DNA of 32,000 bases from Pyrobaculum calidifontis JCM 11548 (GCF_000015805.1 NC_009073.1:900001-932000), one strand, 5' to 3'. Shown: positions 225-24,443, numbered from the stretch's first letter. Notes: generated by a model from the letters alone, not told the origin. A program made the numbers and translations.

Positions 225-1295
225 CTAGTCATGTATTACCGACATGTCTAACTTGGGGCTAAGCTCTTGGTATTTCCCGCCTGTGGCTTTCGCAATCTGT
301 TTCAACAAGTCGCTTTTCTCAACCGCCACGGCGTGGAGTCTCTTGAACTTTTTCACGAGACTCCAAGTTTTTTCAACGTCGGCGGTTCTCCCATCAGTTA
401 TCAACACCGCCTCTCTAACGCCGTAGCTGTAGAGCACCTCTAGGGCAGACGCAAGCTCGGTGCCGCCCCCGGCGTATACGTACTCGAGAATTTCGAGCAT
501 CTCCCTAAGATACTTATGAACCTCGTAGGGAGTCCACATAAAGTCGGCGTCGACGTTGAAGAGCAACAACGAGACGCGGCCTCTGAGACTTGCCATCTGA
601 CGCAAGTACCTCGCCACGGCGTTCTTGGCGACTCTAAGCTTCACGTCGCCCCACATGTACTCCTTCATGCTCCCCGAGACGTCAAGCGCTATGTACACCG
701 GCTTATCCGCCGTCCTTGAATACTCCCTTACGAATATGTCGAAGTCGGAAATCGGCATATTCATGACGAGCTTTCTTCTAAAAGCCGTGGCCGTCCTTAT
801 CAGATCTACATCGGCGAAAGGCGTGCCGGGTATATAGCCTCGCAGAGACTTCACGGCGCCCCGCACGTGCCACCCCTCGCCTCTACCCACGACTCTGCTA
901 TACGAGCGCAAAATTCTGTCCCTAGGAAGGCCCAGCCTCCTAACTACCTCAAGCTTTACCCTGGGCGTGGCGTCCACTGGGACGTGTCTATTAACCAAGT
1001 GGGCAAGCGTAGGCGCCTTCTCGTCGCCCACCGAGCCTATGGCTAGCGTGGGCGCGCCTTCGCGCAACTTCGGGCGACACGTTATAGCTTCTCTTATAAC
1101 CTCCTTCGCCGCAGAGGGGCTCATCTTAAGCGTGCCCGCCAAATTCTGTGCAAGTATTTCAAGAACTTTTTCCCAGTCCACGTCGCCGAGCTCTGCCCGT
1201 ACATAGACGTCCTCAATGCCGTATATAAGACTGCGTATGGAGAGGCCCCCGAGGCAGGAGTATACAGCCGCTAAGAGCTCTACTAAGTCATTCAT
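225..1295 (-). CDS. von Willebrand factor A (VWA) domain protein, partner of the MoxR ATPase
   Basis: The C-terminal half has a MIDAS motif (YIALDVSGSMKE, i.e. DxSxS) and a later LITDG motif. The N-terminal ~190 aa are unassigned. The ATG at 1295 overlaps the moxR stop (AAATGAATGA), suggesting translational coupling. The ORF track instead starts at a TTG at 1310. Confidence 0.8.
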   Translation of the reverse strand: MNDLVELLAAVYSCLGGLSIRSLIYGIEDVYVRAELGDVDWEKVLEILAQNLAGTLKMSPSAAKEVIREAITCRPKLREGAPTLAIGSVGDEKAPTLAHLVNRHVPVDATPRVKLEVVRRLGLPRDRILRSYSRVVGRGEGWHVRGAVKSLRGYIPGTPFADVDLIRTATAFRRKLVMNMPISDFDIFVREYSRTADKPVYIALDVSGSMKEYMWGDVKLRVAKNAVARYLRQMASLRGRVSLLLFNVDADFMWTPYEVHKYLREMLEILEYVYAGGGTELASALEVLYSYGVREAVLITDGRTADVEKTWSLVKKFKRLHAVAVEKSDLLKQIAKATGGKYQELSPKLDMSVIHD

Positions 1296-2211
1296 TTGCC
1301 GCTCTGTCAAATATCTTTAGCAACGCCTCCTTGGTCTCGGAGTCGAAGGGCAAGTTGTTGACCAAGCTCCTCTTCAAGTCCCTAAGCTCAACCTCCCTCC
1401 TCTGCGCCCACGCAAGTGCCGAAGCGTCGGCCAAGGCATAGCTAAGCGATCTCACAGACTGCGGATACCCGGCCTTCTTCGCCTCGTGGGCAAACTTAGA
1501 CAGAATCTCGGCAAGCTTGGAGGGTATGTCCACCTCTAAGTCTCCCAAGGCCTCTCTCGCCTTCCACAGAAGGATGCTCTTTAGGAGCTCCCTGTCCGGC
1601 ATCTTAACTTCTACAAACTTAAGTCTGTCCGCCAACGCCTCCGATAGCTCGTACACACCCTCGTACTCGCTGGGGTTTGCCGTGCCTATCAAGACAAAGT
1701 CCGTCCTAATCCTGTACCCCCTGATGTACACATAGTGCTCTTGTATTGCCTGTAGCAGTGCCGCCTGTGCGTAGGGGTTCAGCCTGTTGAGCTCGTCCAT
1801 TATTAACACGGTGCCATGCGCCATGACAAGCGGCCCAGGGATGTACGAGAGGGGGTGGTCGAGCCCGGCTTGAAGAGCCACCGCTATGTCGATATCTCCT
1901 GTCAAGTCAACTGCGGTCATGTGGGAGTGGCATGCCACCTCAATGTACGGAGGGTCGCCCAGCGCCAGAGTCTCGGCGACGGCCTCCGCCAAGGTGGTCT
2001 TTCCCAGGCCCACTGGCCCCACTAAGACGACGGGCCGGCCGATCATCATGCCGCTTAACACGTCCAGTAAAACGTCGTCGAGTCCCTTAAGCACGCCTCC
2101 AATTCTCCTTCTTATCTCATCCACGCCCATTTTCTTGACTCTCTCCCTCACTAATCTCGGCATGTCGATGGGCTTCCTCTGTAGAAGTTCAGAAAGTCGC
2201 ACGTAAGGCAC
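1288..2211 (-). CDS. MoxR-like AAA+ ATPase
   Basis: Walker A is VLVGPVGLGKTTLAEAV. Walker B with the MoxR signature is LIMDELNRLNPYAQAALLQAIQE. The gene lies immediately upstream of, and overlaps, the VWA gene, which is the classic MoxR-VWA pairing. The start may be the GTG at 2202, given the TATA at 2222-2229. Confidence 0.85.
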   Translation of the reverse strand: MPYVRLSELLQRKPIDMPRLVRERVKKMGVDEIRRRIGGVLKGLDDVLLDVLSGMMIGRPVVLVGPVGLGKTTLAEAVAETLALGDPPYIEVACHSHMTAVDLTGDIDIAVALQAGLDHPLSYIPGPLVMAHGTVLIMDELNRLNPYAQAALLQAIQEHYVYIRGYRIRTDFVLIGTANPSEYEGVYELSEALADRLKFVEVKMPDRELLKSILLWKAREALGDLEVDIPSKLAEILSKFAHEAKKAGYPQSVRSLSYALADASALAWAQRREVELRDLKRSLVNNLPFDSETKEALLKIFDRAANE

Positions 2212-2273: not shown

Positions 2274-3560
2274 ATGTCAATCCGCGTCATGAGGAGCGGC
2301 GACGTATATCGCATAGAGGGGCCTGCCAAGGTTGTAGTAAAACGCGGCCGCGTATATGCCACAGGCGTCGTATACTCCGAGGGGCAGAGCTTCACAGTGC
2401 TTAGGGCTAGAAAACTCGTCATAAAGGCGGTGGAGGACTCGGAAGTGGAACTCGTGCTTGGCCCCGGCGCCCTTCTGGAAAAGACAAGCCCGGGGGAGGA
2501 GGTCATCGACATCTGGGAGAAAAGCGTGGCGGAGATGGACTTGAGGGGTATTATACTGATTATCGGCGTAATGGACGTGGGCAAATCTACCTTGGCCGCT
2601 CTGTTGGGCAACAAGGCCCTGTCTCAGGGGCATAGGGTGGCCATAATAGACGCCGACGTTGGTCAAAACGACTTGGGCCCCCCGACCACGATATCTCTGG
2701 CGAGGCTCGACAAGTACATAACGCATTTGAGGCAGTTAACTGCTGAAAAGAGCATATTTCTACAGGCCACGAGTCTTGAGCGCATATGGCCTAGGGCCGT
2801 TAAACAGATCTACAAGGCCGCGAGGTATGCGCTAGAGGTCTGGAAGGCTGACACAGTGGTCATAAACACCGATGGGTGGATCTTAGACGAGGAGGCGGTG
2901 GCGTTTAAGCGTAGACTTATCGAGGAGATAAAGCCGTCGCTAATAGTGGGAATACAGGTGGAGAACGAGCTACTCCCCATTGTAAAAGGTTACTCAAACG
3001 TCTTGTTGCTACCGCCGCCTCCCCACGTCAGAGCCAAGTCTAGGGAGGATAGGAAGATACATAGGGAGATGGGGTACGGGAGGTACATCTTTCCCCCAGT
3101 AGAGCTGGCCGTGCCGCTGGATAAAATACCTATTTGCAACCTCCCCCTCTTCAAAGGCGTTGAGATAGGCGACGAGTTGAAGAGAATGCTTGCGAAAACC
3201 CTCGGCGTGCCGGTTGTCAGAGCCTATCAAGTGGGCGAGAGGGTCTACGCACTAGTTCAAAACGACGCGTGGCTTATGAAAAAGGTTGGCGGTTTTCAAG
3301 TGGTCTGTATGCCGCTGGAGTTTGAAAAGGGCCTCTTAGTGGGGCTTGAAGACGGCGAAGGATTTCTAGTGGGGCTCGGTGTCATGAAAAAGATATACTA
3401 CGACAAGAGAAAGGCTGTTCTATATACGTCAAGTGACGTAGAGAAGAGGCTAGGCGAGGTGAAGTGTATACGACTAGGCCTCATAAGGCTTGACGAGAAC
3501 TTCAACGAAGTGGAGAAAGTCGCAAGCCTTCTCAAGGTCGAGCACGCACCGCACCTATAA
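2274..3560 (+). CDS. Clp1/Grc3-family polynucleotide 5'-hydroxyl kinase
   Basis: ILIIGVMDVGKSTLAALLGNKALSQGHRVAIIDADVGQNDLGPPTTISLA matches the Clp1 P-loop plus DxDVGQ motif (compare human Clp1 GPTDVGKST...ELDVGQ). The ATG lies 24 nt from the TATA TTTATAAA. Confidence 0.85.
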   Translation: MSIRVMRSGDVYRIEGPAKVVVKRGRVYATGVVYSEGQSFTVLRARKLVIKAVEDSEVELVLGPGALLEKTSPGEEVIDIWEKSVAEMDLRGIILIIGVMDVGKSTLAALLGNKALSQGHRVAIIDADVGQNDLGPPTTISLARLDKYITHLRQLTAEKSIFLQATSLERIWPRAVKQIYKAARYALEVWKADTVVINTDGWILDEEAVAFKRRLIEEIKPSLIVGIQVENELLPIVKGYSNVLLLPPPPHVRAKSREDRKIHREMGYGRYIFPPVELAVPLDKIPICNLPLFKGVEIGDELKRMLAKTLGVPVVRAYQVGERVYALVQNDAWLMKKVGGFQVVCMPLEFEKGLLVGLEDGEGFLVGLGVMKKIYYDKRKAVLYTSSDVEKRLGEVKCIRLGLIRLDENFNEVEKVASLLKVEHAPHL

Positions 3561-3639: not shown

Positions 3640-4410
3640 TTATGGCGTTGCCTCTGTGATATCGGCAAGTGTCCCTAGGTAGGTCAAGTCCGATAGATAT
3701 ACCTCCACTTTCTCCGGGTTAAGCTCGACGTATTTTAGAAAAGTCCGGCCTTCAGACGCTAGGGTCTGTAGCTCTCTTACATCGACGCCGGTTATGAGGG
3801 GGTGGGCGGCGGGTAACACCACGACCTTCAGCTCTCCACGTCGTCTGCAAGGCTCGTCGTACAGAGCCTTGCAGAGCTTAGAGCGACGCGCATATATCTT
3901 CAGCACTGCGGGCTCCTTAGCCGCGTAGCCCACCTCGTCTCTTATAACCACGGCGGGGTGTGTATGCCCCATTACCACAACGTCCGCCCTTTCGAGGTCT
4001 GACTTAAGAGGTTTTACATGCCCATGGAAGAGGAGAAATCTCCCAATTAAGACGCCGCGCGCAGACGCCACTTCAACGCCCTCTATTCCCGCCGCAATCT
4101 CTTGCAGTAGAGAGTCGTGGTTGCCTGGGATAAGCAAAACGGGCACCTTCTTTGCCAAGGTCTTGAGAAAGGCCTTTACCTCATCCACACTCTCCCTAGG
4201 CACGGGGAGCTCGTGTTTAACGTCGCCAAGTATGGCGACCATAGTAGCGTTTTGCGAATCCACTAGCTCTAGCACAGAGTTGGCAAGCTTCGCGGTTTGG
4301 CTAACCACATTTATCCCCCTCTCCCTCCTTAGCTCAACCTCGTAGCCCACGTGAGTATCCGCTAGCAGCAATATCCTCTCGCCGCGGTGTTGTAGCAGAA
4401 TTCCGCGCAC
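3640..4410 (-). CDS. Calcineurin-like metallophosphoesterase
   Basis: The full metallophosphoesterase motif set is present: LLLADTHVG (DxH), ILGDVKHE (GD), IPGNHD (GNHD/E), FHGH, and GHTHP (GHxH). Confidence 0.8.
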   Translation of the reverse strand: MRGILLQHRGERILLLADTHVGYEVELRRERGINVVSQTAKLANSVLELVDSQNATMVAILGDVKHELPVPRESVDEVKAFLKTLAKKVPVLLIPGNHDSLLQEIAAGIEGVEVASARGVLIGRFLLFHGHVKPLKSDLERADVVVMGHTHPAVVIRDEVGYAAKEPAVLKIYARRSKLCKALYDEPCRRRGELKVVVLPAAHPLITGVDVRELQTLASEGRTFLKYVELNPEKVEVYLSDLTYLGTLADITEATP

Positions 4411-4426
4411 TGAGAGGCATACGACT

Positions 4427-4960
4427 TCAGAATTTATTTTTTAGAAGCAGATCCACGGCGGCCTCCGCCATGGCGAGCGTGGCAGGCGACTTGACGCGGA
4501 AAGGCGGAACGCCCACCGCCCTGTGGACGGCCAACTTTTCGTCAAAAGGCACGACGTATACGTCCCCAAACCTCTTATACGCCTTTACAAAAACCTCGCC
4601 CGGCTTTCTAAATACTTTGTTCAAAATAACGCCATAGACCTCGCCCCTAACCGCGGCGTGGAGACGTTCCACAGATCCCAAGGTCTCAAAATCCTCATCT
4701 ACGACGTAGATAAGCGCCTTGCATTTAGACAGAATTTTCACAAACAGCACGTCGTCGAGACGAAAGGCGGGCAAGTCAACGAGGTAGAAGCCGGCGGCGG
4801 AGGCCGTCTTGGCGACGCGCACAGGCACGCCAAGAGACCTCCACACATATGCGGCAACGGCGGCGAAGGTGGTCTTCCCAGTCCCACCTTTACTTCCCGA
4901 CGTTATACAGATCACGTTAGGTGTGGCATATAAAGCTCCTATAGCGGCTTTTAATGGCAC
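4427..4960 (-). CDS. Small MinD/ParA-type P-loop ATPase (CobQ/CobB/MinD/ParA nucleotide-binding fold)
   Basis: A deviant Walker A is present (ITSGSKGGTGKTTFAAVAA). The gene is 16 nt upstream of the phosphoesterase gene on the same strand, so probably co-transcribed. The start codon (GTG 4960) is uncertain. Confidence 0.7.
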   Translation of the reverse strand: MPLKAAIGALYATPNVICITSGSKGGTGKTTFAAVAAYVWRSLGVPVRVAKTASAAGFYLVDLPAFRLDDVLFVKILSKCKALIYVVDEDFETLGSVERLHAAVRGEVYGVILNKVFRKPGEVFVKAYKRFGDVYVVPFDEKLAVHRAVGVPPFRVKSPATLAMAEAAVDLLLKNKF

Positions 4961-5061: not shown

Positions 5062-5583
5062 CTAAAGTTGGTGGTGTGGCTCCTTAGAGCAAAACTCCTG
5101 GGCTTTTCTCTTGTCGCGTAGCACCAATCTGTATCCGTCTTCTCCGTCGCTATAGTAGGCGGGTAGCCTCTCCTTGACTTCAAACCCGGCGCTTTTGTAC
5201 AGACGGAGGGCTGGCTCGTTGGTTACTCTCACCTCTAGAAAGACCTCAGACACCTGCCCCTCCGTTAGCAGCTTCAGCGCGGTGCACAGCAATGCGGCTC
5301 CAACGCCCCTTTGCCGGTGTTCGGGGTGCACTGCGATGGATATCACATGGGCCGCGTTGTCCTCTATACATGTGATAATGTAGCCCACTACGTCTCCGTT
5401 TGACACGTACACATAGGAATGGTCGGAGCAAAATGAGCACAAGAATTTCAGTAGCTCAACGCTGTAGATATCGTCGGGCTTAAACGACAGTTTCTCTATG
5501 CCGTAGATCTCTTCCACGTCTGGGGGGGAGCACTTCCTAAGCACGCTGGTTTTATCTACTGTAAATAAATTGTCCACCTCCAC
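5062..5583 (-). CDS. GNAT N-acetyltransferase, RimI/Ard1-like
   Basis: The acetyl-CoA motif is HPEHRQRGVGAALL (Q/RxxGxG/A). The overall pattern is RimI-like (DVEEIYGIEKLSF ... AAHVISIAV ... LEVRVTNEPALRLYKSAGF). Promoter geometry favours a real start at the in-frame GTG at 5544. Confidence 0.8.
   Translation of the reverse strand: MEVDNLFTVDKTSVLRKCSPPDVEEIYGIEKLSFKPDDIYSVELLKFLCSFCSDHSYVYVSNGDVVGYIITCIEDNAAHVISIAVHPEHRQRGVGAALLCTALKLLTEGQVSEVFLEVRVTNEPALRLYKSAGFEVKERLPAYYSDGEDGYRLVLRDKRKAQEFCSKEPHHQL
5562..5571. promoter_or_regulatory. Shared AT-rich TATA element between the divergent GNAT and large ATPase genes
   Basis: TAAATAAATT lies ~26 nt from GTG 5592 (+) and ~22 nt from the in-frame GTG 5544 (-). 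Confidence 0.45.
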
Positions 5584-5591
5584 GTTTTAAC

Positions 5592-8450
5592 GTGTACGCC
5601 TTTGTGGACTTGCCGTTTAGTCCCAGTGGGGTTACTCACCTAGTTAGACTTCACAAGTCCACGGGCCTTGAGAGAGAGCTTAGGGAGGCCCTTGAGGTGT
5701 TGGAGGCGGCCAAGAGGGGCAATAACAATGTGTTGGCGGTGGTAGTCGCGCCGTATGGCTACGGCAAATCTGAGTTGTTGGACGAGCTTGAGGAGGTGGC
5801 CAAGAGGGAGGGGTTCAGAGTGGTGCGCACTGCGTTGACTCTTGATCAAGGCCTTGCCATAGACTTGGCGTCTAAAAAGCGCGACGAGCCCATGCTAGTC
5901 CTCATCGACGAGGCTGACGAGATTTCGCGCATGGCTATTGTCCACAAACTCGGCGCGCTTAGCGACGAGAGGTTTATGAAGATAGTTCAAAACGTGGCCA
6001 CGCTTATAAGGGCGTTGCTAGAGCCGCGCTCCTACCGCCACATACTCGGCGAACCTGAGCGGTTTAACAAGGTCGCCATAATAATAGCGCTCACGCCCCA
6101 GCTATACTACACGATATTGAAAAACGTAGTTCCAGACGTCTTTGACTTAACCACGGGCCGTGTCTACAAAGAAATAGCGCTGGACACTAGATACCCATTT
6201 TGGCAATACGTTGAGACCGTTAGACAGAGGCTATACGCCTACTCTACGCCGGAGAGGAGGCGGAAGATAGAGTCAGGCGAGTTAAACCCGCTCAGTCCCT
6301 TCACTCTGGCCGAGCTGGCGGCGTTATACCACTTGGCGAAGAGGAAGGGGGAGACGGCGCCGCGCCACTTAATGAAGCTGACGGCCAGGCTTTTTCAATA
6401 CAAGGCAGAGGGGCGCAGGCTTGCCCACCTCTTAAGAGAGGAGGGCATAAGCCCAGAGGTAGACGACAGAGTGCTAGAGCTGGCCTTCGCTGGTGTGCCT
6501 CACGACGATGAGACCCTTAGGGCCGCGTCTAGGGAGGTCTACGTGTACAAGATACCTTACGACGAGAAAGAGGCCTTGGACATTGCTAGAGAGCAAATAG
6601 CCCTCAGAGGAGGCTCCCTAGACATAAAAGATGTAAAAAACATATCCTACGAGCCGTACCTCTACTACTCATTGGTAGAAGGGGGGAAGTTGTACATATA
6701 TTTACTCTCAGACGAGGAAGTGGTTGAGTTAAATAGATATTTTATTGGTAAAAAACTTATTATATCAAGCGATGTTGCAAAAATTATAGTCGGCGAAGAT
6801 CAATTGGCCTCAGCAGCTTTTGCCAAACAGTATATGCAGAAGTTGGAGAACCCGGCGTATCTCCTAGAGGAGGTAGAGCGCGCTCTTGAAATCTCCGGCA
6901 TAAGACTGAGGAGCTGTTGCGGATACGCAGTCTGGGACAACAACATGGGCTTTAGAGAGGCGTACATCTTCATGTACATAAGCAGAGAAGATGAGTTGAG
7001 AAATGCGGCTAAGGCTCTGGCGGACGTCGTGGCGCAGGGGTCCATAGGCGGATACGTCGTGGACTACTTTGCCCTCTTCGTCGCCAGTCCAATACTGCTC
7101 ACAGAAACCGTGGAGAGGGCCTTTGCCCCAATTTTCTCCGCGTATTGGAAGAGGTTCTACCCCGTCAAGGCGTTAGACTTTGCAATTGTTCAGGTATATG
7201 GGGCGGACAAGTTTGAGAAATTGAAGCAGGAGCTTGTGAGATATGCCGTAGACAAAGTCTTAAGGCGCGATGCCAAGCCGCCGAGCTTTGTAGACGCAGT
7301 GCGGCTTGGCAGAGAGAAGGCGCGTGAAAAGACGTTGAGGTATACGCTGGCCCTTAGGAAGGGCAAAGAGAAGAAGCTCGTTGTCTTGGTAAAAGTGGCT
7401 GAGGCCCTAGACGAGGGTCTAGAGGTTGAGGGCTTGAAGGCGTATCGCGAGATAGAGGAGATAATTCTCAAGGCATTTGACGCGTCTATTCACGAGAGGG
7501 AGCTTAAGTCGCTCATAGCTACACTGTTTCCAACTAATTTGTGGAGAGAGATTAAGGAGGACGACGTCATTGAGTTAATGAAGCTGAGGGGCGTATTAGT
7601 CCCCGTAGGTGACCTCTTATACAAATATAGAGAGGACTTGGCCAAGCGCCACGTACAAGAGCTTTTATCACAACTAGAGTCTCTGGGCGAGATATTCATT
7701 GAGAGACAGACGCCTCTTGGCCCCGTGAGAGTACGTAAGAGGCTCGACATCGGCAAGGGAGAATACAGCTTCCGCGACCAGAAGGAGTATGGCAAAGTCG
7801 TAAGAGAGCTCACTCTCAAGCTGGCCGCCGCGAGAGAAAGCCATGAAAAGAATAAAAGGGAGGCCGAGGCAGAGGTAGAAGAGAGGGTAAAACTTGTTAA
7901 AAGACTCGCCGCGGTTGTGGAAAAGTTCCCCATGAGGGCAAAGATGATAGAATTAGACAAGCTGGACGAGCAGATAGTCAAAAGAGAGGAGGCCATTCTT
8001 CAAAAGGCCAGTGAGATAATGAGGATTTGGGAGAGCGCTAGACACATAGCTCAAGCCGTCGGCTCTGCCCTAGACGTAGAGAGAGACCTCTCGCTTTTGT
8101 TAGAGCTTCCAGAGCCCTGGCTAGACGACTACGCCGCCCATTTGAAGCTCTATGTGGCCGAGCTAGAAAAGAAGTATGAAAAAATGCGGGAAGAGGAGAG
8201 GGCTAGGAAGACGGTGCAGGAATGGCTGAGGGAAAAGTTCGGCGTCTCAGAGCTGGACTTGTTGCCAGAAGTTGCTAAAAGACTTGGTGTAGATGCAAGA
8301 CTGTTGGAGGCTGTGGCCCGCAGAGGTAGAGGGGCGCATTTGACAATAGAGGAGTTGGCAGAGGAGACTGGGTTAGACAAGTCGCTGGTTGAAGAGGGTT
8401 TGGAGAAGTTATACAGAGCGGGGGTTGTGGAGAAGAGGTATGTCGCTTAA
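5592..8450 (+). CDS. Large P-loop NTPase (ORC/STAND/archaeal-ATPase-like N-terminus) with long C-terminal coiled coil and terminal wHTH; function unknown
   Basis: Walker A is VVAPYGYGKSELL (aa 51-63) and Walker B is LVLIDEADE (aa 102-110). The upstream LERELREALEVLEAA resembles the GRExEL lead-in of archaeal ATPases. Residues ~690-900 are heptad-like and E/K/R-rich. The last ~36 aa (LTIEELAEETGLDKSLVEEGLEKLYRAGVVEKRYVA) look like a winged helix. A GTG start lies 26 nt from the TATA at 5562-5571. Confidence 0.6.
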   Translation: MYAFVDLPFSPSGVTHLVRLHKSTGLERELREALEVLEAAKRGNNNVLAVVVAPYGYGKSELLDELEEVAKREGFRVVRTALTLDQGLAIDLASKKRDEPMLVLIDEADEISRMAIVHKLGALSDERFMKIVQNVATLIRALLEPRSYRHILGEPERFNKVAIIIALTPQLYYTILKNVVPDVFDLTTGRVYKEIALDTRYPFWQYVETVRQRLYAYSTPERRRKIESGELNPLSPFTLAELAALYHLAKRKGETAPRHLMKLTARLFQYKAEGRRLAHLLREEGISPEVDDRVLELAFAGVPHDDETLRAASREVYVYKIPYDEKEALDIAREQIALRGGSLDIKDVKNISYEPYLYYSLVEGGKLYIYLLSDEEVVELNRYFIGKKLIISSDVAKIIVGEDQLASAAFAKQYMQKLENPAYLLEEVERALEISGIRLRSCCGYAVWDNNMGFREAYIFMYISREDELRNAAKALADVVAQGSIGGYVVDYFALFVASPILLTETVERAFAPIFSAYWKRFYPVKALDFAIVQVYGADKFEKLKQELVRYAVDKVLRRDAKPPSFVDAVRLGREKAREKTLRYTLALRKGKEKKLVVLVKVAEALDEGLEVEGLKAYREIEEIILKAFDASIHERELKSLIATLFPTNLWREIKEDDVIELMKLRGVLVPVGDLLYKYREDLAKRHVQELLSQLESLGEIFIERQTPLGPVRVRKRLDIGKGEYSFRDQKEYGKVVRELTLKLAAARESHEKNKREAEAEVEERVKLVKRLAAVVEKFPMRAKMIELDKLDEQIVKREEAILQKASEIMRIWESARHIAQAVGSALDVERDLSLLLELPEPWLDDYAAHLKLYVAELEKKYEKMREEERARKTVQEWLREKFGVSELDLLPEVAKRLGVDARLLEAVARRGRGAHLTIEELAEETGLDKSLVEEGLEKLYRAGVVEKRYVA

Positions 8451-8946
8451 AATAGTGGTGTTAAAAGAGGGCGGAGAGCCCCTCGGCGACGTGGTGATAG
8501 ATGCACGCGGGCCTCCTGAGTTCTTCGACGCAGTGATACTAGGCGGGAGAGAGCTGAAATCTGTGGTGGCCATAGGGGCCGTAGAGGGCGGGGTTCCAAT
8601 TGGAGTTGGTAAATACACGAAGAAGCCCGTGGCGGCCGTCGTAGAGGGCAGAGTCGTAATAAGGGGAATCCCCATATCTCTCTACTACGAGTTAGGAATA
8701 CTTGAGCGGGAGATTGTGGAGGCGTTGGGCAGAGGCGTTACTACAGATGTGGCGTTGGAGAAACTGAAAGAGGTGGTAATAAGAGAGAGGCGTAGGTACA
8801 AGCGGTCGCAGACGCTGGCCATCTTGGCCAAATACGTAGAGGGCGAGGTGGCCGAGCTACCGCCGCATTTGATCGACATAGTGGGCAACTTGAGTAGAGA
8901 TGAGGCAAGGAAGCTGTTTGAAAAATTGTTAGAGGAGATATACTAA
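8440..8946 (+). CDS. Hypothetical 168-aa protein (beta-rich N-half, helical C-half), middle gene of the ATPase-NurA operon
   Basis: The ATG at 8440 overlaps the upstream stop (ATGTCGCTTAA, 11-nt overlap) and follows GAGGT. The stop overlaps the next ATG (TAATG). The ORF track's longer start at 8389 would overlap the ATPase gene by 62 nt. I see no recognisable motif. Confidence 0.6.
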   Translation: MSLKIVVLKEGGEPLGDVVIDARGPPEFFDAVILGGRELKSVVAIGAVEGGVPIGVGKYTKKPVAAVVEGRVVIRGIPISLYYELGILEREIVEALGRGVTTDVALEKLKEVVIRERRRYKRSQTLAILAKYVEGEVAELPPHLIDIVGNLSRDEARKLFEKLLEEIY

Positions 8947-9689
8947 TGGTATTTTCAGAGCTGTTGAGATTTGTAGAACTAGAGTTCTACCCCCACGAGG
9001 TGGAGATTCCTCCGTCGTTGAAAAGGCTTGTCAACTACTGCCGCGGGGGACGTCTCAGAGACTACTACGCGGTTGACTCAGGCTACGTGGTACAGGAGGT
9101 GGGCGACTACGACGTCTTAGTGCAACTGGTGGTGGGGGTGGGAAGAGAGGTGAAGAAGAGGTTCCTAGTGCAGAAGGCGTACGACGATGTGCACTATGTG
9201 GCGCGCATAAACGAGATAAAATTCGCCGAGGCCCTCCACGGAGGCCTTGTGTTTGTAGATGGGCCATTAACCCCATATGTAAACACGGCCAATGTTGTTG
9301 GAGTATCTAAAGACCCGCGCCTTGTGAGATATGGGCCGAGAATAGCGCAGGAGGACCTGCGTCACGAGTTTGTAAGCGTCGCTAAGAAGATTGGAGAAAA
9401 AGAGGTGGCCCGCCGCCTGCTCCAAGGCGAGCCCCCTGGCTCCTACTTAGAGCCTGTGGAAATAGGCGATTTCTACGGAACTTTTATCAAGTCTGACTGG
9501 GTTCTATATGTAGAATTTCCAAAGAGTATGAGGGCCGAGGAGATATGTGGAGTGTTAAGCCGCTACCCGATAAGACTTAGAGTGGCACACCATCTGGCCA
9601 AGCTAAATAGAGAATTTCTGAATTCAATATATTACTTGATGTTGAACATGGTTAAACCACAAAAAATAAACATTAGAGAATTATTATAA
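8946..9689 (+). CDS. Compact NurA-family (RNase H-fold) nuclease
   Basis: The motif order matches my memory of the NurA family: YYAVDSGY (D44, compare hhhDGS/G), KFAEAL (E95), LVFVDGPL (D105, compare hhhDGSL), and the C-terminal RYPIRLRVAHHL (compare YPxPLxxAH). At 247 aa it is much shorter than canonical NurA (~330-450 aa). Confidence 0.6.
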   Translation: MVFSELLRFVELEFYPHEVEIPPSLKRLVNYCRGGRLRDYYAVDSGYVVQEVGDYDVLVQLVVGVGREVKKRFLVQKAYDDVHYVARINEIKFAEALHGGLVFVDGPLTPYVNTANVVGVSKDPRLVRYGPRIAQEDLRHEFVSVAKKIGEKEVARRLLQGEPPGSYLEPVEIGDFYGTFIKSDWVLYVEFPKSMRAEEICGVLSRYPIRLRVAHHLAKLNREFLNSIYYLMLNMVKPQKINIRELL

Positions 9690-9824
9690 CCCTTTGTAAA
9701 TGTATATAAGTCGTGCTAAGGCCATGTTAATGCAGTCATCAAGTGTTTCTAGGTTATATTTTTTGCAGACCTCGTAGAGACTTTCTAGTTCGTCCTCAGA
9801 AACAGGAATAATTACACGCTCCAT
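9684..9824 (-). CDS. Unannotated 46-aa ribbon-helix-helix (CopG/Arc-like) protein
   Basis: This ORF is not in the ORF track because it is under 60 aa. ATG 9824 to TAA 9684 gives MERVIIPVSEDELESLYEVCKKYNLETLDDCINMALARLIYIYKGL, a beta-strand/helix/turn/helix pattern typical of RHH proteins. A TATAAA box (9846-9851, minus strand) lies about 24 nt upstream of the ATG. Confidence 0.5.
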   Translation of the reverse strand: MERVIIPVSEDELESLYEVCKKYNLETLDDCINMALARLIYIYKGL

Positions 9825-11128: not shown

Positions 11129-11692
11129 CTAGGACTTTAGCAGATTGGCTAGTTTTTCTCTTATTTGTGCCAACTCGCGCCTGAGTTGTTCTACCTCTTG
11201 CCTTAGCCGCGCGTTTTCCTCGGCAAGCTGTTCGCAACCCTTAGGCGCCGCTGGTTTACATTTGTCGCTTCTAACCCAGTAGTAGAACTCCGTCTTATCT
11301 TTCTGCCACTTCAACTCGCCGCTTGCCAAATCCACCTCCACCTCTGTTATAATCATAAATATGTCGCCTTTGTCGAGCCCGTAGCGTGGGGCAACTTCGT
11401 TGAAAAACCACTCCTTCAGTGCGTCAAACATCTCACGGCTACTCCTCCTAAAGCCCTCTGAGTCCCTTATCTTGCCAAAGATCTCCTCGCCCTGAGGCCC
11501 AAACTTCTCTCTAAGCGAGCCGGCAATTGCGCCAAAGAGAAGTCTAAAGAAGTCGGGCCTCCCGCCTACTCCGTATCTTCCAAAGAGCCGCCCTGCCGAC
11601 GTCTTGCCAGTGTTCCACCTTATGATTAGTATCTGCCTACCTCCCCGCTCTTCTACGTGCGCCCGCTCCACCGTCCTCTCCTCCTCTGCCAT
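11129..11692 (-). CDS. Hypothetical protein with C-terminal leucine-zipper-like coiled coil
   Basis: The C-terminus is LAEENARLRQEVEQLRRELAQIREKLANLLKS. No enzymatic motif is visible. The ATG at 11692 lies 24 nt from the TATA at 11711-20. The ORF-track start at 11710 abuts the TATA and is unlikely. Confidence 0.55.
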   Translation of the reverse strand: MAEEERTVERAHVEERGGRQILIIRWNTGKTSAGRLFGRYGVGGRPDFFRLLFGAIAGSLREKFGPQGEEIFGKIRDSEGFRRSSREMFDALKEWFFNEVAPRYGLDKGDIFMIITEVEVDLASGELKWQKDKTEFYYWVRSDKCKPAAPKGCEQLAEENARLRQEVEQLRRELAQIREKLANLLKS

Positions 11693-11710
11693 ATGTATAG
11701 TAAAGCTCAT

Positions 11711-13962: not shown

Positions 13963-14056
13963 TGGCGGGCCCGGTGGGATTCGTAGGCGGCTCTGCCTGA
14001 ACCCACGACCTACGGGTTAAAAGCCCGCCGCTCTAACCGGGCTGAGCTACGGGCCC
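13963..14056 (-). tRNA. tRNA-Lys(UUU): tRNA-Lys (anticodon UUU) with a 16-nt non-canonical intron in the T-loop; CCA encoded
   Basis: The minus strand reads GGGCCCG TA GCTC AGCCCGGTTA GAGC G GCGGG CTTTTAA CCCGT AGGTC GTGGG TTC[AGGCAGAGCCGCCTAC]GAAT CCCAC CGGGCCC G CCA. The cloverleaf closes only if 13983-13998 is removed. Confidence 0.85.
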
Positions 14057-24327: not shown

Positions 24328-24443
24328 TGGTGGGCCCGCCGGGATTTGAATTCCCGGGTCGGCTCGTGGCGCCGTCCTCCCGGGATCACCCGCGTTCCGA
24401 GTGTCCTCGTCAGGCGGGCATCCTACCGCTAGACTACGGGCCC
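24328..24443 (-). tRNA. tRNA-Val(GAC): tRNA-Val (anticodon GAC) with two introns (canonical 37/38, 13 nt; T-stem/T-loop junction, 28 nt); CCA encoded
   Basis: The minus strand reads GGGCCCG TA GTCTAGCGGTAGGAT G CCCGC CTGACG[AGGACACTCGGAA]C GCGGG TGATC CCGGG[AGGACGGCGCCACGAGCCGACCCGGGAA]TTCAAAT CCCGG CGGGCCC A CCA. Introns are at 24395-24407 and 24351-24378. Confidence 0.85.

Follow-up and report, generated by a model that had tools for sequence, protein, structure and literature searches.

We analysed a 32-kb window, the whole stretch of Pyrobaculum calidifontis DNA considered here, in which three genes, g1, g2 and g3, lie on the same strand (Table 1). The stop of g1 and the start of g2 share 11 nt (ATGTCGCTTAA at 8440-8450), and the stop of g2 and the start of g3 share 1 nt (TAATG at 8944-8948). 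These junctions were re-read in the sequence and agree with the overlapping stop/start codons described in the initial annotation. A TTG at 8389, upstream of the ATG, is an alternative start of g2; the ATG was preferred because the homologues all begin with MSL(K/R). Judged from the usual geometry of archaeal promoters, an A/T box ahead of g1 is a candidate promoter, from which all three genes would be transcribed together without a leader. The P. calidifontis trio is a real, tightly coupled three-gene operon.

Table 1. Coordinates of the genes, motifs and candidate sites in the window
Feature	Position	Strand	Basis or remark
TATA-like A/T box TAAATAAATT	5562..5571	+	~26 nt upstream of g1 GTG; read from sequence
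g1	5592-8450	+	952-aa ORF, GTG start
g1 Walker A APYGYGKSE, residues 53-61	5748..5774	+	alignment A1
g1 Walker B MLVLIDEADE, residues 101-110	5892..5921	+	alignment A1
g1 long-helix (coiled-coil-like) region, residues 730-883	7779..8240	+	AlphaFold secondary structure
g1 C-terminal wHTH, residues 901-949	8292..8438	+	Pfam MarR_2, HTH_5, IclR, TrmB
g2	8440-8946	+	168-aa ORF, ATG start at 8440
g3	8946-9689	+	247-aa ORF
g3 candidate catalytic D44	9075-9077	+	invariant columns
g3 candidate catalytic E90	9213-9215	+	invariant columns
g3 candidate catalytic D105	9258-9260	+	invariant columns
g3 candidate catalytic H215	9588-9590	+	Asp here in other genera
46-aa ORF MERVIIPVSEDELESLYEVCKKYNLETLDDCINMALARLIYIYKGL	9684..9824	-	translation and tblastn

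The g1 protein is 100% identical to a hypothetical protein of P. calidifontis. It carries a conserved PFSPSGV motif at the N-terminus, followed by an AAA+ base and lid (residues ~27-300), an alpha/beta region (~310-560), a helical, winged-helix (wH)-like region (565-720), three long helices and a MarR-like wHTH. The AlphaFold model had a pLDDT of 86.7, and Foldseek matched it in the PDB to Cdc6/ORC proteins (including P. aerophilum Cdc6, 1FNN), RuvB, MuB, the clamp loader and Hda at E-values of about 1e-4. The N-terminal module is an AAA+ module of the ORC/Cdc6/RuvB/MuB type. Y55, G56, G58, K59 and E61 of Walker A and D106, E107, D109 and E110 of Walker B were invariant in alignment A1; LVLIDEADE spans residues 102-110, and Walker B forms strand E101-107 in the model. 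T168 is a candidate sensor 1, R190 a candidate arginine finger, and P257-R258 a candidate sensor 2. The window g1 matched no Pfam AAA family at the gathering score. Its MarR_2 match, at 28.6 bits, exceeded the gathering score of that profile (27), and 7 of 22 g1 family members match MarR_2. Pfam and Foldseek agree with the ORC/Cdc6/AAA_16-type P-loop core and terminal wHTH assigned in the initial annotation, whose quoted motifs are all present in g1 and g3. The fold, Walker motifs, candidate sensors and finger, and wHTH of g1 suggest an active AAA+ ATPase. Between the AAA+ module and the helical region, ~400 aa gave no match, and this part could hold an unexpected activity.

A coiled coil of ~200 aa had also been described in g1. 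The helical region is present, but in the AlphaFold model it covers ~150 aa, and its profile matched only designed coiled coils in the PDB. The region consists of three long helices and is not an SMC-like arm. In SMC/Rad50-type proteins, Walker A and B are split by a long antiparallel coiled coil, whereas in g1 they lie 47 residues apart in one AAA+ domain. Lamassu and Wadjet share with the trio a three-part logic of coiled-coil ATPase, small subunit and nuclease. The likeness to Lamassu/SMC-type systems that had been drawn does not hold, however, as Walker A and Walker B are neighbours in the g1 sequence; the short helical region and the negative PADLOC search also set the trio apart from these systems.

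Orc1/Cdc6, RuvB, MuB, the clamp loader and Hda have an N-terminal AAA+ base and lid as in g1; an N-terminal 'VG.E.EL' motif before Walker A and a C-terminal winged-helix DNA-binding domain are further features in common. Unlike these kin, g1 has ~600 extra residues (alpha/beta and coiled-coil) between the ATPase and the wHTH, and the trio has NurA as partner and no transposon ends or origin context. In RuvB-RuvA-RuvC and MuB-MuA, an AAA+ ATPase is paired with an RNase-H-fold nuclease or transposase. The trio would resemble them by analogy of logic only.

The assignment of g3 to the NurA family, made in the initial annotation, was borne out by profile searches. The Pfam NurA profile matched g3 at 28.7 bits (gathering score 21) over profile positions 2-253 of 254, and the g3 family profile matched S. 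solfataricus NurA (2YGK) over the full length at E 1.3e-7 and P. furiosus NurA (3TAI) at E 1.5e-3. The motifs AVDSGY, KFAE, VFVDGPL and RYPIRLRVAHH are present. E95 had been named as a catalytic residue; the alignment columns and the comparison with 2YGK show that the invariant Glu is E90. As judged from profiles and motifs, g3 is a genuine but divergent, miniaturised NurA-family nuclease. At 247 aa it is smaller than the solved chains, which have 339 aa in Sso and 471 aa in Pfu, and it is ~120-150 aa shorter than HerA-linked NurAs; the lost residues may include HerA-contact regions.

The middle protein, g2, matched nothing in Pfam, NCBIfam, PADLOC, PHROGs or the PDB and has no recognisable fold among them, in line with its earlier description as an unknown protein. 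Its AlphaFold model (pLDDT 58.8 overall) has a poorly modelled, beta-rich N-terminal half and a confident C-terminal half of four helices (80-90 for residues 100-168). An ERR motif (E116-R118, in an RERRRY stretch) and the C-terminal Y168 were invariant in alignment A2, which takes in distant orthologues. We presume that g2 is an adaptor. A conserved 46-aa ORF is convergent with g3, and the two share 6 nt at the 3' end of g3. The encoded protein shows an RHH-like pattern in which two Cys residues are invariant (alignment A8), and its best PDB match was a weak one, to CopG (E 0.076). By tblastn, the ORF directly follows g3 at every Pyrobaculum and Thermoproteus locus. At one locus (L010) it was relocated together with g2-g3, and at two loci without g2-g3 (L031 and L032) it adjoins g1. 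The 46-aa protein may be a fourth member of the module, with a regulatory role.

Homologues of g1, g2 and g3 were found with E-values from 1e-49 to 0, and the colinear arrangement was seen again in ~25 independent genomes; both go beyond chance. An exhaustive HMMER search detected only 41 relatives of g1 among 1.84 billion representative proteins. The proposed check of co-conservation was run, and the g1-g2-g3 order, mostly overlapping, was kept as a unit in ~25 of 28 informative loci, in Pyrobaculum, Thermoproteus, Vulcanisaeta, Thermocladium and further Thermoprotei, and it persisted where the flanking genes were unrelated. The obligate co-expression proposed earlier holds as a rule but is not universal: in L010, g2-g3 lie 4 kb off on the opposite strand, and in L031, L032 and L036, g2 and/or g3 do not adjoin g1. 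Identity to P. calidifontis g1 drops with taxonomic distance, from 58-64% in other Pyrobaculum to 41-47% in Thermoproteus and ~30% in other genera. One trio locus was found per genome fragment examined, and the neighbourhood of a Clp1-like kinase, phosphoesterase, GNAT, aminotransferase, ThermoDBP and radical SAM genes is kept across Thermoproteaceae. The trio is inherited vertically across Thermoproteales.

The layout of NTPase, small subunit and nuclease resembles that of many defence systems. We judged it unlikely that the trio serves in anti-virus or anti-plasmid defence, with g1 as an NTPase sensor or switch (AAA_16/STAND/BrxC-like) that would respond to a viral protein or to foreign DNA by licensing the NurA effector nuclease via g2. 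Weak matches to nSTAND_NTPase5, AAA_16 and BrxC_BrxD at the g1 N-terminus in the family searches, the linked RHH-like gene and the CRISPR association of another Pyrobaculum NurA-HerA pair (PMC3396285) are consistent with such a role. Within Pyrobaculum, g1, g2 and g3 are 58-64%, 55-64% and 47-57% identical, compared with 70-86% for most flanking genes; this faster evolution would fit a conflict system too. The large ATPases of BREX (BrxC/PglY/BrxD; PF10923, PF04465; ~1000-1200 aa) have an N-terminal AAA_16-like P-loop as in the g1 family, and BrxC_BrxD was weakly matched by 7 of 22 family members; one relative from the HMMER search, P0082, exceeded the gathering score. However, these matches were limited to profile positions 15-86 of 414, the P-loop region, and the window g1 had no BrxC_BrxD match in Pfam. 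No PglX, PglZ, BrxA, BrxB or BrxL gene neighbours the trio in the 32-kb window, and PADLOC gave no match on the trio; PHROGs gave nothing beyond a generic wHTH. The window holds no mobile, integrase, transposase, CRISPR or other defence genes, and neither plasmid nor phage homologues were found. The lack of mobility and of defence neighbours and the conserved housekeeping synteny argue against a defence island. The family is also very narrow, unlike horizontally spreading defence genes, and is order-wide with one locus per fragment, following taxonomy. Defence, one of the roles put forward in the initial annotation, found no positive support.

We also compared the trio with the archaeal HerA-NurA end-resection complex (2YGK, 3TAI). 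Both have a NurA nuclease with the same order of catalytic motifs, and in both the operon also encodes a P-loop ATPase. In HerA-NurA, however, the ATPase is a hexameric translocase of the HerA/FtsK class with a HAS barrel, whereas that of the trio is an ORC/Cdc6/AAA_16-type AAA+ with a wHTH, and the trio has the extra small subunit g2. It is also not clustered with mre11/rad50; the canonical herA-nurA pair of P. calidifontis, Pcal_0358/0359, lies elsewhere in the genome (PMC3396285). Pyrobaculum has three other NurA-HerA pairs (PMC3396285), which leaves it less obvious why a fourth repair nuclease would be needed. The CRISPR-associated Pyrobaculum cluster nurA-csm6-herA, beside CRISPR arrays, is like the trio in having a lineage-conserved Thermoproteales NurA paralogue outside the canonical repair operon; its NurA (Pcal_1294) is a different paralogue that pairs with HerA and Csm6, and the trio has neither HerA nor a CRISPR context (PMC3396285).

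The absence of a HerA, Mre11 or Rad50 partner noted earlier is correct locally: neither Mre11 nor Rad50 is encoded next to the trio, and no HerA was found within 8 kb of it in any Thermoproteales locus. It does not extend to two distant sister clusters (L040 and L041), the only two metagenomic contigs on which the HerA link is based. In these, a wH protein is followed by a g1-like ATPase, a small protein, NurA and, directly after it, a HerA that carries a HAS barrel. The nearest relative of their NurA is g3 of L005, a deep-branching genuine cluster, rather than a second NurA encoded on the same contig. A homologue of their upstream wH protein occurs in L005, whereas their middle protein has no detectable homology to g2. 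Since the NurA of these HerA-bearing clusters belongs to the g3 lineage, we infer that the module descends from a HerA-NurA type machine. The likeliest reading, at about even confidence, is that the trio is a DNA-processing module with this descent, chromosomal and vertically inherited in Thermoproteales; cooperation with a HerA-NurA machine may persist.

The place of HerA directly after the orthologous NurA in the sister clusters also speaks for a different arrangement, in which g1 and g2 would load or regulate a HerA motor encoded elsewhere, for example one of the orphan paralogue group Pcal_1112/PAE2998. The machine would then be HerA with the mini-NurA, and g1 a DNA-recognition or loader subunit and not the motor. 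The g1 fold matches ORC/Cdc6- and clamp-loader-like AAA+ proteins, which are classical loaders. A fourth HerA group, Pcal_1112/PAE2998, has no adjacent NurA (Table A2 of PMC3396285), and g3, a NurA, has no HerA next to it. However, HerA is absent within 8 kb of the trio at all Thermoproteales loci, and g3 is shortened, possibly in its HerA contacts; we consider this arrangement quite improbable.

The neighbouring genes and the fold of g3 also allow RNA as the substrate. Some RNase-H-fold enzymes are RNA nucleases. A Clp1_P kinase and a phosphoesterase lie 1-2 kb upstream of the trio throughout Thermoproteaceae, which would suit an RNA-processing or surveillance module. Outside this family, however, the Clp1 synteny is lost while the trio is kept, the g1 wHTH domains are of dsDNA type, and the sister clusters hold the dsDNA translocase HerA. 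Characterised NurA enzymes act on DNA (PMC12977600, PMC9905601), and of all the readings an RNA substrate appears the least probable. Very little probability also attaches to a role of the trio in chromosome organisation or cell division, specific to Thermoproteales, whose division apparatus is atypical. Here g1 would act as a DNA-binding ATPase with a coiled coil, and g3 would resolve DNA during segregation. This role would fit the coiled coil of g1, its tandem wH-like domains at the C-terminus, and a lineage restriction like that of other Thermoproteales-specific cell-biology genes in the available part of PMC10936438. A weak EAP30/ESCRT-II-like match of g1 (E 0.049) and a small, syntenic ParA-like P-loop gene upstream would fit it too, but the match is far below threshold, and the gene is on the opposite strand and syntenic only within Thermoproteaceae. 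The candidates discussed in that part of PMC10936438 do not include the trio, and the HerA-NurA link indicates DNA processing.

For the DNA-processing module, we propose that g1, with its ORC/Cdc6-like core and winged-helix domains, would bind a DNA end, fork or other structure and oligomerise or change conformation under ATP control. The small adaptor g2, translationally coupled to both neighbours, would bridge g1 to g3 in a physical complex. The NurA-lineage RNase-H-fold nuclease g3, with an intact D-E-D-H/D active site, would then cut or resect DNA, its activity presumably controlled by ATP through g1, in repair or replication-associated processing. The 46-aa RHH-like protein probably regulates the operon. 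The NurA and AAA+ families are known; we found no description of the trio in the literature, as the initial annotation had also remarked for a system of this composition. These results suggest that an AAA+ ATPase, an adaptor and a shrunken NurA form a combination that was not previously described.

The genes g1, g2 and g3 encode an AAA+ ATPase, a small protein and a NurA-family protein, and each overlaps the next. Re-reading of both junctions gave the same stop/start overlaps as the initial annotation. At 8440-8450 (ATGTCGCTTAA) the ATG of g2 sits 11 nt inside g1, and at 8944-8948 (TAATG) one base is common to the g2 stop and the g3 start. Because all g2 homologues have MSL(K/R) as their N-terminus, the ATG at 8440 was taken as the start of g2, and not an upstream TTG. 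The TATA-like box before g1 has a spacing that would fit a leaderless archaeal transcript. The g1 protein was 100% identical to a P. calidifontis database entry named "hypothetical protein". Orthologues of g1 carry the automated labels "hypothetical", "ATPase" or "ArsR family regulator", and some g3 orthologues are labelled "NurA" or "NurA domain-containing".

Features of the window and of related loci with their coordinates
Feature	Sequence	Position	Strand	Basis or remark
MoxR-type AAA ATPase (AAA_5/AAA_3), then VWA-domain protein	window	225-2211	-	
Clp1-type polynucleotide kinase	window	2274-3560	+	CLP1_P E 4e-32
Calcineurin-like phosphoesterase, 256 aa, generic	window	3640-4410	-	Pfam scan
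Minimal ParA/CbiA-like P-loop protein, 177 aa	window	4427-4960	-	conserved upstream block
GNAT acetyltransferase	window	5062-5583	-	
TATA-like box, TAAATAAATT	window	5562-5571		about 26 nt upstream of the g1 GTG
g1, 952 aa	window	5592-8450	+	GTG start; ORF call
g2, 168 aa	window	8440-8946	+	ORF call
g3, 247 aa	window	8946-9689	+	ORF call
RHH-like ORF, 46 aa	window	9684-9824	-	convergent with g3; 6-nt overlap at g3 3' end
ThermoDBP	window	11129-11710	-	Pfam ssDBP_DBD E 3e-61; C-terminal coiled coil
tRNA, 91 nt	window	13966-14056	-	Rfam 60.6 bits; missed by ARAGORN
tRNA, 113 nt	window	24331-24443	-	Rfam 37.5 bits; missed by ARAGORN
g0, winged-helix-like, about 250-272 aa	L005	5196-6014		directly upstream of or overlapping g1
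g0	L041	6257-7000		as in L005
g0	L040	4429-5181		as in L005
Second pair, HerA-like, 486 aa	L040	2-1459	-	
Second pair, unrelated NurA, 312 aa	L040	1456-2394	-	
PCNA_N/Hus1-like matches, 364 aa	L040	13617-14711		just after the module
Zn-ribbon protein, 77 aa, highly basic tail	L032	11345-11578	-	between g1 and the RHH-like gene

When 1.84 billion cluster representatives were searched exhaustively with HMMER, 41 proteins matched the g1 profile at E <= 1e-3, and about 20 of these were full length. A scan of GTDB species representatives yielded 33 loci, all from Thermoproteales or Thermoprotei (Pyrobaculum, Thermoproteus, Vulcanisaeta, Thermocladium and MAGs), and no g1 homologue was found in plasmid and phage collections. 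Identity to the window g1 dropped with growing taxonomic distance from P. calidifontis, from 58-64% in other Pyrobaculum through 41-47% in Thermoproteus to about 30% in the remaining genera. The three genes were adjacent, colinear and mostly overlapping in about 25 of the 28 loci with enough downstream sequence to judge g2 and g3, as found by an HMM search of all ORFs, so their conservation as a unit in relatives was confirmed with few exceptions. Pairwise comparison showed that the middle and third genes were true homologues even at 20-30% identity. In L010, g2-g3 lay on the opposite strand, 4 kb off; L031 and L032 had neither gene near g1, and L036 had g1 and g2 without g3. Gene fragments seen in the JCM draft genomes are apparently due to frameshifts in the assembly.

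In Pyrobaculum and Thermoproteus, the trio lies in a syntenic block running from a Clp1-like kinase, a calcineurin-like phosphoesterase, a ParA-like protein and a GNAT protein through the trio to an aminotransferase, ThermoDBP and a radical-SAM protein. The remaining genera kept the trio but had different flanking genes. The co-conservation of the three genes is independent of their flanks, and the module is vertically inherited. Since the GNAT start is annotated 8 nt from the g1 start, the true GNAT start is probably deeper in the gene. As the initial annotation had cautioned, the surroundings are housekeeping genes, and the rest of the window holds MoxR-VWA, a peptide ABC transporter, asparaginase and MoeA. 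MoxR-VWA is a classic gene pair and is unrelated to the trio. The two tRNA genes of the window presumably contain introns; such genes are common in Pyrobaculum. ThermoDBP is a non-canonical ssDNA-binding protein that Thermoproteales have in place of a canonical SSB. Its gene lies 1.4 kb downstream of g3 in the window and about 170 bp downstream in Thermoproteus. A functional link to the trio was rejected, because the adjacency is block synteny confined to Thermoproteaceae and the ThermoDBP gene is convergent. Papers on ThermoDBP and on lineage-specific proteins did not mention the trio.

The AlphaFold model of g1 (mean pLDDT 86.7) predicts an N-terminal AAA+ alpha/beta base and helical lid with Walker A and B. 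Foldseek against the PDB gave AAA+ matches only, confined to the first 300-430 residues; these were Rix7, RuvB, P. aerophilum Cdc6 (1FNN), ORC/Cdc6, MuB, a clamp loader and Hda, and all except Rix7 are noted with probability 1.00 and E 5e-5 to 1e-3. The search against BFVD likewise returned AAA+ proteins only. In 22 sequences, down to 24% identity, the ATPase motifs were intact, with Y55, G56, G58 and K59 of Walker A and D106 and E107 of Walker B invariant. T168, G189-R190 and P257-R258 were also invariant and are plausible as sensor 1, arginine finger and sensor 2, respectively. The fold and the Walker motifs are common to g1 and ORC/Cdc6-like AAA+ proteins, but the scores of curated families were not reached: in Pfam, AAA_30, AAA_16, AAA_22 and nSTAND_NTPase5 were all below gathering scores for the window g1, and NCBIfam matches were far below cut-offs. 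Residues 310-720 received no assignment from Foldseek or profile comparison with the PDB, where nothing but designed coiled coils and P-loops matched the g1 profile and single trio sequences gave only noise. Three long helices follow in the model (residues 730-883), and the C-terminus is a MarR-like wHTH (28.6 bits; Pfam gathering score 27). The Pfam scans of the trio also gave a weak match to HTH_Cmi2_C, and no relevant literature was found under Cmi2.

The initial annotation had likened the trio to defence systems such as Lamassu. In SMC/Rad50-like ATPases (LmuB, JetC), a long antiparallel coiled coil separates Walker A at one terminus from Walker B/signature at the other. In g1, by contrast, a single contiguous domain holds both K59 and D106, and the long helices are C-terminal. 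These motif positions led us to reject an SMC-like reading, and the likeness to Lamassu was not upheld. A defence role, with g1 as sensor and the NurA as effector, is possible: the NTPase-adaptor-nuclease architecture fits, the trio diverges faster than neighbouring genes, and the g1 P-loop has weak BrxC/STAND-like affinities (sub-threshold matches to AAA_16 in 11, nSTAND_NTPase5 in 9 and BrxC_BrxD in 7 of 22 family members). The BrxC_BrxD matches were confined to the first 70 profile positions. For BREX BrxC/BrxD (PF10923), the window g1 had no match, and although one relative, P0082, passed the gathering score (27.2 bits; threshold 22.2), its match was limited to profile positions 15-86 of 414. 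No BREX genes (pglX, pglZ, brxA/B/L) were found among the window neighbours. In PADLOC-DB v2, g2 and g3 had no match and the g1 C-terminus had only weak Csa3/CARF wHTH matches (E 8e-4 and weaker). Nothing positive was found in favour of defence, which is also at odds with the distribution and the housekeeping context. The initial annotation had held defence and lineage-specific repair or segregation equally open; the evidence best supports a DNA-processing module that is chromosomal and inherited vertically.

The assignment of g3 to NurA was borne out. It scored 28.7 bits with Pfam NurA PF09376 (gathering score 21; E 1.2e-6) over profile positions 2-253 of 254, and this domain was present in 22 of 22 full-length homologues. 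A family profile built from 18 members matched S. solfataricus NurA (2YGK) over nearly the full length with E 1.3e-7 and P. furiosus NurA (3TAI) with E 1.5e-3. The family motifs VDSG, LLDG and YPxxLxxAH pair with IDGG/VDGS, LMDG and YPFPLLKAH/LQLAHH of the solved NurAs. D44, E90, D105-G106, K122, Y188 and Y207-P208 were invariant throughout the family, and position 215 was His, or Asp in other genera. The initial annotation had proposed E95 as catalytic, but the Glu that is conserved is E90. Judged from sequence, the D...E...D...H/D catalytic motif of this predicted nuclease is intact. Homologues span 243-364 aa, and the smallest (243-249 aa) are those of Pyrobaculum, whose shortening maps to four insertion segments in the family alignment. 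NurA enzymes combine an RNase-H-like fold with a dimeric ring architecture and 5'-3' exo/endonuclease activity on DNA. The solved NurA chains are 339 and 471 aa long, about 90-220 residues more than g3, which may therefore be without the dimer and M-domain elements.

In HerA-NurA(-Mre11-Rad50) operons, HerA (DUF87/HAS-barrel, FtsK-class), mre11 and rad50 are adjacent, whereas the trio has none of the three. Pfam scans of the window neighbours gave no Rad50/SMC, in agreement with the initial annotation, and the only related match was the generic calcineurin-like phosphoesterase on the opposite strand. The absence of a HerA partner held in the window and in the 33 Thermoproteales loci, where the sole HerA-type match, in L001, was a DUF87 protein of 303 aa that is unrelated and lies 3.6 kb upstream. 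It did not hold in the sister clusters L040 and L041, the only loci with HerA next to the module. These contigs come from uncultured organisms (about 31% GC, measured for L040), and their gene order is a winged-helix-like protein of about 250 aa, a g1-like ATPase, a 240-306-aa protein, NurA (370-398 aa), HerA (528-538 aa; DUF87, HerA_C and a weak HAS barrel) and TGT. Their distant g1-like proteins, P0101 (1225 aa) and P0107 (1218 aa), matched the g1 profile at the N-terminal AAA+ and C-terminal coiled-coil/wHTH regions (E 1e-15 and 5e-10; hhalign probability 98.4). No further sister clusters were found when metagenomes were scanned for relatives of these two proteins.

The winged-helix-like protein of the sister clusters was homologous to that preceding g1 in L005/L035, a deep-branching genuine trio cluster (blastp E 1e-10, 25% over 254 aa). 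This gene, g0, was found in the deepest-branching and HerA-containing sister clusters and was absent from Pyrobaculum loci. The sister-cluster NurAs were closest to L005 g3 (81-87 bits) and had no similarity to the second NurA paralogue on the same contig. Because of the g0 homology and this NurA similarity, g3 is a module-specific NurA lineage whose deepest relatives stand beside HerA, and the module has an evolutionary tie to HerA-NurA. The NurA sizes form a series from 398/370 aa (with HerA) through 364, about 276-308 and about 257-260 to 243-249 aa in Pyrobaculum, and from 364 aa downwards no HerA is adjacent. For P. calidifontis, a previous report listed three pairs of NurA and HerA: Pcal_0359/0358, which is the canonical pair and lies elsewhere in the genome, Pcal_1069/1070 and the CRISPR-associated Pcal_1294/1296. 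Its fourth HerA group, Pcal_1112, has no NurA partner, and the g3 family is not in its table (PMC3396285). It is possible that g3 pairs with this orphan HerA, and a role as loader of an unlinked HerA ranks below both the DNA-processing reading and defence.

No match to g2 was found in Pfam, NCBIfam, PADLOC, PHROGs or the PDB, and NCBIfam, PADLOC and PHROGs gave only generic wHTH and P-loop matches for all three proteins. The g2 model (pLDDT 58.8) was confident only in the helical C-terminal 70 residues, and Foldseek returned no match with E below 0.6. An ERR motif (E116-R118, within a RERRRY stretch) and the C-terminal Tyr were invariant. The SiAgo-associated protein SiAga1 was discarded as a relative (profile against the PDB, non-significant E 0.27). 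The sister-cluster middle proteins are positional analogues of g2 only; hhalign gave a probability of 0.1, and no homology is claimed.

In every Pyrobaculum and Thermoproteus locus, g3 was followed immediately by a 46-aa ORF (57-80% identity). It was relocated together with g2-g3 in L010 and adjoined g1 in L031 and L032, the loci without g2-g3. Its alignment showed a strand-helix-helix pattern and two invariant Cys; it matched no Pfam family, and its best PDB match was the RHH repressor CopG, at a weak E of 0.076. This RHH-like protein is a probable linked regulator of the module. The Zn-ribbon gene of L032 occurs in the lineage without g2 and g3 beside g1.

For the DNA-processing module, we infer a complex acting on DNA in which the DNA-binding g1 would recruit or activate the NurA-lineage nuclease g3 under ATP control, with g2 as the small adaptor through which g1 acts. 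Roles as a segregation or division factor or in RNA processing likewise rank below defence, and the available part of a paper on ESCRT/CdvA and Thermoproteales division (PMC10936438) did not mention the trio. No paper was found that describes this gene set, in line with the initial claim of an undescribed composition; the components are known folds, and their combination and lineage are new. We tentatively suggest, as a possibility rather than an expectation, that in Thermoproteales HerA was replaced by g1, acting via g2 on a minimised NurA, and that this HerA-independent class of ATP-dependent DNA processing would serve a lineage-specific pathway for ends, forks or other DNA structures.

To our knowledge, NurA has so far been studied as an obligate partner of the HerA translocase. 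The size series of the NurAs is a natural experiment on the parts needed for HerA coupling. As the g1 family is tiny and about 400 aa have no fold match, structural work could uncover new domains, and since only three proteins of a cultivable hyperthermophile are involved, the proposal is directly testable in vitro. The genome-maintenance toolkit of Thermoproteales is unusual, for example in having several HerA-NurA paralogues and ThermoDBP instead of SSB, and the trio would be its fourth, previously unlisted NurA system. If g1 to g3 work together, they would be evidence that the nuclease module is able to exchange its motor or switch for one of another class.
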